DNA from: Candidatus Omnitrophota bacterium
GTDB taxonomy: Bacteria; Omnitrophota; Gorgyraeia; 2-02-FULL-51-18; JAGOUK01
Direction of reading: 5' to 3'
DNA: 64,000 bases
Assembly (NCBI GenBank): GCA_047639455.1
Contig: JBLINS010000003.1
Location: 3-64,002 of the forward strand
Shown here: positions 36,491 through 36,685 of the stretch, piece after piece
Numbering within the stretch: position 1 is the stretch's first letter
How the letters are laid out: every line of letters starts with the position of its first letter
The notes under the pieces: generated by a model
Seen by the model: the letters and a program-made list of their open reading frames with translations, nothing else
The model's database searches: none
Told to the model about the DNA's origin: nothing
Position numbers and translations under genes: made by a program

Positions 36491-36685
36491 TGTCATTGCG
36501 GATTGCGTTGAGACAGGTACTCCGTCATTGCGAGGAGGAACGACGTGGCAATCTAGAGATATTGTTAGCTCTGGATAGGTAAGTTTATTAGTTTTAGATT
36601 GCCGCAGCCAAAAAAGGCCTCGCAATGACGAATGTTAAAAGTTGAGATTGCCACTTCGCTTGCTTCGCGCTCATCGCAATGACGC
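36491..36685. repeat. MITE/REP-like elements (two nested palindromes, gtcattgcgag family)
   Basis: tgtcattgcgg...ccgtcattgcgaggagg...ggcaatctaga // tagattgccgcagcc...cctcgcaatgacg ... ctcatcgcaatgacg. Confidence 0.8.

Follow-up and report, generated by a model that had tools for sequence, protein, structure and literature searches.

The window considered here is a stretch of 64 kb from contig JBLINS010000003.1 of a Candidatus Omnitrophota bacterium, and the subject is a family of short hairpin repeats that crowds the spacers between its genes. The original prediction, with the region 36491-36685 as its representative, had described palindromic elements of 100-200 bp whose arms co-vary, had likened them to miniature transposable elements with inverted repeats (MITEs) and repetitive extragenic palindromes (REPs), and had raised a link with a REP-associated tyrosine transposase (RAYT) encoded at 62613-63281. 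That the family is real and dense was borne out. The sequence of the representative region matches the description given of it, and the arm motif CGTCATTGCGAGG, allowing up to two mismatches, was found 20 times where dinucleotide-preserving shuffles of the window gave a mean of 0.85 and a largest count of 5. A covariance model, R1, was built from the 23 short-arm units of the window and searched with filters off; it matched 28 units in the 64 kb. Five of these matches (39763-39801, 5149-5248, 32962-33061, 58041-58140 and 22314-22409) lie outside the training set, and one long-arm unit, 39588-39708, was missed by R1 and spotted by eye.

Bona fide copies were present in each of the 12 regions that had been listed. 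Copies were found in 12 of the 19 spacers of at least 120 nt. Nearly all copies lie in spacers between co-directional genes, and units occur in both orientations relative to transcription. The gene names given were correct, and the separation of def (59540-60049) from fmt (60316-61251) by a spacer of 266 nt agrees with the coordinates. The spacer between pgi (37803-39569) and cbiX (40042-40407), said to be completely filled, is 472 nt long and is mostly but not wholly taken up by units. Copies absent from the earlier description are two that lie in frame within an open reading frame (ORF) of 3943 aa, 21091-21131 and 22314-22409, and one unit split by an intron. An exact 36-mer of the representative gave no match in the genome contig collection, and a literature search with the arm sequence returned unrelated primers only. 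The copies are as follows, in window coordinates.

5094-5131, + strand: unit, helix ATTGT/ACAAT; left half of a pair; 29 bits
5149-5248, - strand: long-arm unit, ATCCT/AGGAT, 82-nt inner module; right half; head tandemly duplicated at 5235-5272
9207-9244, + strand: unit, ATTGC/GCAAT; left half of a symmetric pair
9258-9298, - strand: unit, ATTGC/GCAAT; right half of the symmetric pair
15774-15814, + strand: unit, ATCCT/AGGAT; left half, its partner split by a group II intron
15866-15896, - strand: tail and proximal inner arm of the right unit that the intron (15897-17772) splits; 5' exon flank
17773-17838, - strand: distal inner arm of that right unit, with its head, which reads CGTCACCATGAGGAGCGCG on the - strand; 3' exon flank
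21091-21131, - strand: unit, ATTGC/GCAAT; in frame in the 3943-aa ORF, encoding ..KIATSLLRASRND..; absent from homologues
22314-22409, + strand: long-arm unit, CTTGC/GCAAT, 65-nt arm; in frame in the 3943-aa ORF; the arm holds the uninterrupted intron homing site
32774-32816, + strand: unit, ATCCT/AGGAT; left half
32867-32909, - strand: unit, ATTCT/AGAAT; right half, partner of 32774-32816
32962-33061, - strand: single long-arm unit, ATCGT/ACGAT, 82-nt module
34228-34266, + strand: unit, ATCAT/ATGAT; left half
34286-34322, - strand: unit, ATTGT/ACAAT; right half, partner of 34228-34266
36523-36556, + strand: unit, ATTGC/GCAAT; left half of the representative pair; head fragment at 36491-36507
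36594-36630, - strand: unit, ATTGC/GCAAT; right half of the representative pair
36643-36684, - strand: extra unit, ATTGC/GCAAT; GAT in place of GAG
39588-39708, + strand: long-arm unit, ATTGC/ACAAT, 4 of 5 paired; 103-nt arm made of the 82-nt module and the nested palindrome GCCTGCCTGTCGGCAGACAGGC
39763-39801, - strand: unit with degenerate tag TCTG, ATTGC/GCAAT; 39 bits; outside the training set
39828-39868, + strand: unit, ATTGC/GCAAT; left half
39923-39964, - strand: unit, ATTGC/GCAAT; right half, partner of 39828-39868
47290-47325, + strand: unit, ATTAT/ATAAT; left half; three head fragments at 47230-47289
47345-47385, - strand: unit, ATCCT/AGGAC, terminal A opposite C unpaired; right half
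49642-49682, + strand: unit, ATTGC/GCAAT; left half
49696-49747, - strand: unit, ATTGC/GCAAT, 34-nt arm; right half
53415-53456, + strand: unit, ATCCT/AGGAT; left half
53507-53542, - strand: unit, ATTAT/ATAAT; right half; same subtype combination as 47290/47385 with the order inverted
57947-57987, + strand: unit, ATTAC/GCAAT, one A-C mismatch; left half
58041-58140, - strand: long-arm unit, ATTGC/GCAAT, 82-nt module; right half
60091-60157, + strand: two perfect 33-nt tandem head copies of the next unit; period 33, 2.7 copies, 100% match
60158-60199, + strand: unit, ATCCT/AGGAT; left half of the def-fmt pair
60263-60299, - strand: unit, ATTGT/ACAAT; right half of the def-fmt pair

When all GTCATnnn sites were listed with their downstream sequence, the repeated entity was seen to be a single hairpin unit, typically of 30-45 nt. 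Read from the tag, it consists of [C/T]GTC, ATnnn, GAG, a variable inner arm, YGNR, n'n'n'AT and C, the last usually followed by T. GAG and YGNR face each other as a conserved internal loop, the former sometimes being GAA or GAT and the latter usually CGTG, CGTA, TGCG or CGAA. Eight triplet types are present (TGC, CCT, TGT, TAT, CAT, TCT, CGT and TAC), and a few dozen bases further on each is followed by its own complement, with the TAC unit, which has one mismatch, as the exception.

The 23 short-arm units were aligned with MAFFT. The GTC of the tag is present in all 23, preceded by C in 17, T in four and A or G in one each, and a C directly follows the helix in all 23. Standard pairs fill 98.3% of the cells of the 5-bp basal helix ATnnn/n'n'n'AT. 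Two of its positions are A-T (in 22 units) and T-A (in all 23), and the other three vary on both sides, with counts of UA 17 and CG 6; GC 12, CG 6 and AU 3; and UA 12 and CG 11. None of 500 column shuffles reached the observed pairing or covariation, and pairing fell to 26-55% when the 3' partners were slid by 1-3 columns. Within the arm lies a second stem, 66% paired, three of whose four pairs show compensatory changes. In our reading of the alignment, the subtype GAGGAGCG...CGACG has tandem G-A/A-G mismatches in place of two of the second-stem pairs.

The distal arm is freely variable and places 16-103 nt between the basal strands, ranging from a GCGNAGC mini-hairpin to modules of 65-103 nt. 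GCGNAGC, which we take to be an unusually stable DNA mini-hairpin, ends 14 of the 23 short arms; other arms form a GC stem with a T6 loop. An arm module of 82 nt is common to four units with four different basal helices (CCT, CGT, TGC and TGC/TGT), while the 65-nt module occurs in one unit. Because the helix compensates within the unit, the GTC of the tag and the 3' C are invariant and one arm is carried on four helices, the hairpin is the constrained feature. The evidence of selection for pairing belongs to the single unit and not to the pair, and the earlier claim of a REP-like hairpin under constraint holds for the former and is not supported for the latter.

The 82-nt module, seen in units 5149-5248, 32962-33061, 58041-58140 and 39588-39708, itself forms a hairpin CCGGT..ACCGG with one compensatory change; an 18-mer taken from it gave 12 chance matches in the metagenome collection, none with the module. 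Within the arm of the last of these units is nested the 22-nt palindrome GCCTGCCTGTCGGCAGACAGGC, at 39605-39626, which recurs at 32683-32706 in the spacer 32636-33129 and is another small repeat inserting into the mosaics.

The supposed elements of 100-200 bp are inverted pairs of units with their tags outward. Twelve such tag-outward (HH) pairs are intact, one further pair is split by the intron, and five units are single. Both halves carry the same triplet in five of the 12 intact pairs, in every case TGC. The other seven are heterotypic (TGT/CCT, CCT/TCT, CAT/TGT, TAT/CCT, CCT/TAT, TAC/TGC and CCT/TGT), and their termini do not complement each other at the variable triplet. Pairing between the two ends, taken over their first 12 positions in the 12 pairs, is 85.0% against 83.6% after shuffling, and 138 of 500 shuffles were as high. 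Among 10 distinct pairs, the two most variable end positions fail to pair in 4 and 6. Co-variation between the arms of a pair, a central point of the original prediction, is therefore not supported. In two of the three examples offered for it, one arm had been quoted together with its own reverse complement. At 47230-47388 only ctcaggatgac is present and gtcatcctgag is absent, the real left arm being gtcattatgag; at 53415-53543 only ctcataatgac is present and gtcattatgag is absent, the real left arm being gtcatcctgag. In the third, at 34196-34335, both strings exist, but of their three variable positions two are mismatched. Whole pairs do fold as long hairpins through their conserved bases, the symmetric ones with z-scores of -5 to -9 (-35.5 kcal/mol and z -9.2 for 9205-9301) and the heterotypic ones with an internal loop at the triplet.

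These features bear on whether the pairs are classical MITEs, that is, internally deleted insertion sequences of 100-200 bp with terminal inverted repeats GTCATTGCGAGG, moved in trans by a DDE transposase. Their size range, inverted ends, high copy number and intergenic location would fit. No target-site duplication of at least 3 nt was found at any of the 12 pairs, the ends of seven of the 12 do not match at the triplet, often joining different unit subtypes, and units occur singly and inside genes, none of which is as expected of a MITE. On these grounds the classical MITE was excluded and must be considered very improbable; the true entity is the short hairpin unit.

Units often have their tag-proximal head duplicated, exactly or nearly so, either in tandem or in a stuttering manner and always on the outer side of the pair (5235-5272, 60091-60179, 47230-47289, 49606-49641 and 36491-36522). 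The copies at 5235-5272 and 60091-60179 are perfect tandems. Fragments of GTCAT were seen in 11 of 24 outer pair flanks where about 1.6 were expected. The duplications may have been left by slippage, or else by repair after cleavage upstream of the tag. Directly downstream of the pair 53415-53542, ORF 53559-53912 matches TauE/SafE over its C-terminal half only (profile positions 128-237 of 237), and no N-terminal half was found upstream; a truncated gene and a half-size form are both possible.

The ORF at 20804-32635, whose 3943-aa product, a secreted protein, starts with a signal peptide, holds two units in frame. The one at 21091-21131 (- strand) contributes the peptide ..KIATSLLRASRND.. and that at 22314-22409 (+ strand) ..SPSLRSEW...RKRRGNL... 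Homologues with 40-60% identity are without the segment corresponding to the first unit and have a linker of variable length at the site of the second; some carry other low-complexity inserts at these two sites. The divergent spacer upstream of this giant ORF, 20430-20623, contains large near-perfect palindromes unrelated to the units, among them one of 58 bp, AAATAAATAGGGACACGTACTGTTTAATT / AATTAAACAGTACGTGTCCCTATTTAATT, with a related arm at 20430-20452.

A group II intron at 15897-17772 sits in the inner arm of a hairpin unit. It starts with GTGTG and ends with GAC, matches the Rfam models for D1-D4 and for domain V/VI, and contains a reverse transcriptase ORF at 16422-17708. Joining the flanks (15866-15896 and 17773-17838) without the intron gives a sequence that agrees with the reverse complement of the inner arm of unit 22314-22409 (22327-22391) at 55 of 60 positions, so the giant ORF contains the homing site in uninterrupted form.

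By the original prediction's own criterion, a lack of further copies would have refuted it, and the outcome speaks strongly for a real family. A scan of one genome per species with the pattern CGTCATTGCGAGN{8,30}GCAATCT gave at least 120 loci in other genomes. The matches listed come from Gamma- and Alphaproteobacteria, Rickettsiales, Bacteroidota, Chloroflexota, Patescibacteria, Planctomycetota, Omnitrophota, Firmicutes, Margulisiibacteriota and others, and often form close inverted pairs. R1, trained on window copies only, found 157 matches in the 730 kb of the listed loci. Non-TGC units in these loci meet their own complement in 29 of 59 cases, compared with 4.8 (largest 12) when triplets were shuffled among units. 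The unit is thus not lineage-specific and occurs across bacterial phyla. Two further observations from the listed loci speak against the MITE: like ends enclose unrelated centres across many phyla, and no transposase recurs among nearby ORFs of at least 120 aa. When ORFs of at least 120 aa around the units of the 120 listed loci were clustered, only housekeeping genes (ABC ATPase, response regulator, Fur and others) were recurrent. This cut-off hid a nuclease of about 95 aa, described below.

The transaldolase of the window has no relative above 60% identity, indicating that the host is an unsampled lineage; its homologues are in Omnitrophota, Nitrospirota, Anaerolineae and Acidobacteria. A cyanobacterial repeat of the Nostoc-type SDR or Nezha kind had been considered and was rejected, as the transaldolase homologues point to other phyla. 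A stand-alone SWIB/MDM2-domain protein of 88 aa at 42009-42275, uncommon in bacteria, may help to place the lineage.

An ORF of about 95 aa matching the GIY-YIG nuclease family PF01541 was found in 5 of the 120 repeat-selected loci listed, and in three of the five (L014, L016 and L045) a + unit and a - unit with the architecture of the window units enclose it. A second set of loci was picked by the GIY-YIG protein alone, with homologues in Omnitrophota, Thermodesulfovibrio and others, and was then searched with R1. In all six of these independent, protein-selected loci a + unit stands just upstream of the start codon and a - unit begins at the stop codon (positions 1789-1794), the tail of the - unit on the other strand supplying the stop codon. 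The flanking units have helices ATCCT, ATTGC or ATTCT followed by GAG, a variable arm and the C tail. Many of the Ssn-like genes in the wider material (loci L133-L142, P0354 and the protein homologue list) are on contigs of 0.4-3 kb, as expected of multi-copy sequence breaking assemblies. One Ssn-like variant, with a D5-type primase on one side and a large serine recombinase on the other, is in surroundings that look mobile.

A GIY-YIG nuclease of similar size has been described. SsnA is a 94-aa single-domain GIY-YIG nuclease that handles the Neisseria repeat CGTCATTCCCGCGMAVGCGGGAATCYRG, which it binds solely as single-stranded DNA and cuts a few nucleotides upstream (Nat Commun 2025;16:2388, PMC11893778). 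The C after the palindrome is critical for binding, the three upstream bases are critical for cutting, and the loop of the substrate is dispensable and can be extended (PMC11893778). Motifs of this kind accompany 71% of ssnA loci, homologues across phyla are flanked by them, and the repeat-gene-repeat layout resembles an insertion sequence (PMC11893778). Earlier, a superfamily of CGTC-tagged REPs, to which the Neisseria repeat handled by SsnA belongs, had been defined by a terminal CGTC (or TGTC or CCTC) that stays outside the stem, by AT as the first two stem positions and by a short tail (Di Nocera, De Gregorio and Rocco 2013, BMC Genomics 14:522, PMC3733652). Its members form mostly tag-outward (HH) dimers, frequently heterodimers, include intragenic copies such as Rickettsia RPE-4 and RPE-6, and have no associated transposase (PMC3733652).

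The gene found between these units bears on the proposed part of the RAYT, in which the units would be REPs and the inverted doublets REPINs (REP doublets forming hairpins), whose mobilisation as single-stranded hairpins would be the work of the Y1 transposase at 62613-63281 or of some other RAYT. That ORF does encode a Y1/RAYT-like protein (PF01797, E 7.6e-08; NF047646, 69.9 bits, below the cut-off of 80), so this part of the original prediction was upheld. The long hairpins formed by the doublets, strongest in the symmetric pairs, and the unpaired tetranucleotide beside the hairpin also recall REP/RAYT substrates. However, the palindrome that flanks the RAYT-like gene, in three copies, is a different one, TTTAACACTCCCGGGGTGTTAAA, which has neither tag and is found nowhere else in the window, and no unit adjoins the gene, the nearest being about 2.3 kb away. 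The tag of the units is CGTC and not GTAG, and no Y1 gene flanked by CGTC repeats was found in the 2013 survey (PMC3733652). Seven of the 12 pairs, being heterotypic, are unpaired at the variable triplet, and the gene between such units in other genomes encodes a GIY-YIG nuclease and not a Y1 transposase. Mobilisation of the units by a RAYT is accordingly regarded as quite improbable. Around the RAYT-like gene (62310-63315), the three flanking palindrome copies read ACCGATTTTAACACTCCCGGGGTGTTAAAAT; the upstream one belongs to a tandem duplication of 151 bp (62310-62590, 91% match), which also takes in the 3' end of the gene before it.

A role at the level of RNA had also been suggested, in which units or pairs, once transcribed, fold to end, process or stabilise transcripts or to insulate neighbouring genes, and are kept for that purpose. 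The location of almost all copies between co-directional genes, the compensatory changes that keep the pairing and the stable folding of the pairs are what it would predict, and enterobacterial REPs are established to stabilise upstream mRNA (cited in PMC3733652). The hairpins have no T/U tract, and terminator-like sites between 32 and 51 kb number 17 against 16.9 in shuffles, so a terminator role finds no support. At gathering score, Rfam gave a tRNA, a c-di-GMP-I riboswitch and two group II intron domains in the window and no match on any unit. The two copies in frame inside coding sequence and the use of both orientations relative to transcription also count against an RNA function. The GCGNAGC ends of 14 of the 23 arms, presumably stable as DNA mini-hairpins, point the same way. 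Finally, an invariant unpaired GTC and 3' C, in a sequence that crosses phyla and stands beside a DNA nuclease gene, suggest recognition by a protein on DNA. That the repeats are kept for RNA is thus unlikely, and a secondary effect of such stable hairpins at the RNA level is possible.

The repeats of the window are probably, though by no means certainly, cross-phylum hairpin repeats of the CGTC-tagged REP kind that flanks Ssn genes, acting through an Ssn-based mechanism. Under such a mechanism, each unit would fold on its own when the DNA becomes single-stranded, for instance on the lagging-strand template or in DNA that is taken up or transferred. An Ssn of about 95 aa, encoded elsewhere in the genome, would bind the basal stem and the 3' C, as the published work on Ssn proteins leads one to expect. 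Its nick would fall upstream of the GTC tag, at a distance of a few nucleotides, and would thereby modulate the recombination of repeat-carrying DNA. Copies may have spread by nuclease-initiated copying or by single-strand transposition of units or pairs.

Several observations weigh against this interpretation. No GIY-YIG ORF was found in the 64-kb window, where the best hidden Markov model E-value was 5. The published string for Ssn-related motifs (SRM), HGTCWYN(0-2)YYVSBRHN(0-5)WNVSBRGN(0-2)RNCYNB, and the NTS repeat have no match on either strand of the window; the string fails on the window units because their stem is interrupted after 5 bp and their arm is longer than the string allows. 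The stem itself differs, being 5 bp followed by the GAG/YGNR internal loop and a second variable stem in the window and continuous over 8-9 bp in SRM/NTS. The CGTC superfamily was likewise described, from five phyla, with stems of 8-9 bp and loops of 4-5 nt, whereas the window units have an interrupted stem and a long, modular arm. Searches of PDB and NCBIfam with the flanked GIY-YIG proteins returned no named relative, and the assignment is made through PF01541. Altering the stem sequence is reported to abolish SsnA activity even when pairing is kept (PMC11893778), so that eight helix variants would need several nucleases, a laxer enzyme or many dead copies. The perfect compensation within units could come partly from template switching inside the hairpin instead of selection. 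The in-frame units show past insertion and are not evidence of current mobility.

The window pairs share the geometry of the unit-ssn-unit cassette and therefore look like gene-less versions of it, from which they would derive. A more specific proposal is that they are non-autonomous copies of a hairpin-flanked ssn cassette, or its empty homing sites: the nuclease would nick beside an existing unit, repair would copy in the cassette or pair, and the co-varying 3-bp helix core would serve as an address to particular Ssn paralogues. This proposal is doubtful. In one genome (L145) the same left-unit subtype was seen both beside ssn and where ssn is missing, but because the right units are not alike the two sites do not make a clean comparison of filled and empty. 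Were the cassette proposal true, these repeats would form a third class of single-strand-hairpin mobile DNA beside IS200/IS605 and REPIN/RAYT.

For annotation, assignment to Ssn-type repeats would mean that the spacers hold a known class of hairpin repeat and not a lineage-specific MITE or a structured RNA, and that the RAYT should not be credited with them. For detection, the interrupted-stem form of the repeat is widespread (candidate phyla radiation, Omnitrophota, Chloroflexota, Bacteroidota, Rickettsiales and others) and, as it escapes the published SRM string, surveys made with that string would undercount the family. With its helix variants, variable arms, in-frame insertions and intron site, the 64 kb is a compact natural test set for Ssn recognition and spread. 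Apart from the repeats, the window contains a c-di-GMP-I riboswitch at 1863-1950 (66 bits, full length), directly upstream of ORF 1954-3693.

The REP/REPIN-RAYT systems (Nunvar 2010; Bertels and Rainey 2011, PMC3116915; Ton-Hoang 2012) resemble the window family in having hairpin repeats with an unpaired tetranucleotide and inverted doublets, thought to be active as single-stranded DNA, and a cognate enzyme gene flanked by the repeats. They differ in their GTAG tag and HUH Y1 transposase, as against CGTC and a GIY-YIG nuclease, and the RAYT-like gene of the window is flanked by unrelated palindromes. The likeness to SRM/NTS (PMC11893778) extends over a 5' (H)GTC tag, AT at the beginning of the stem behind it, a C directly after the stem (all 23 aligned units of the window), free variation of the distal loop, intergenic copies in the hundreds, and the repeat-gene-repeat arrangement around a single-domain GIY-YIG protein of about 95 aa, where units of the window type were seen at all six ssn loci elsewhere. 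The window differs in its arm, 16-103 nt against 0-5 nt in the published string, in having eight helix variants within 64 kb and in holding no ssn gene. With the CGTC superfamily (PMC3733652), which includes RPE-4, RPE-6 and the dRS3-containing Neisseria repeats, the window units share the unpaired CGTC tag outside the stem and its TGTC variant, the AT stem start, the short tail, the predominance of HH dimers, common heterodimers, in-frame intragenic copies and the lack of an adjacent transposase. The bacterial interspersed mosaic elements (BIMEs) of E. coli and the Neisseria intergenic mosaic elements (NIMEs) similarly fill spacers with several repeat types, nested and in tandem; their building-block sequences differ from those of the window, where nesting takes place specifically in the distal arm of the hairpin.

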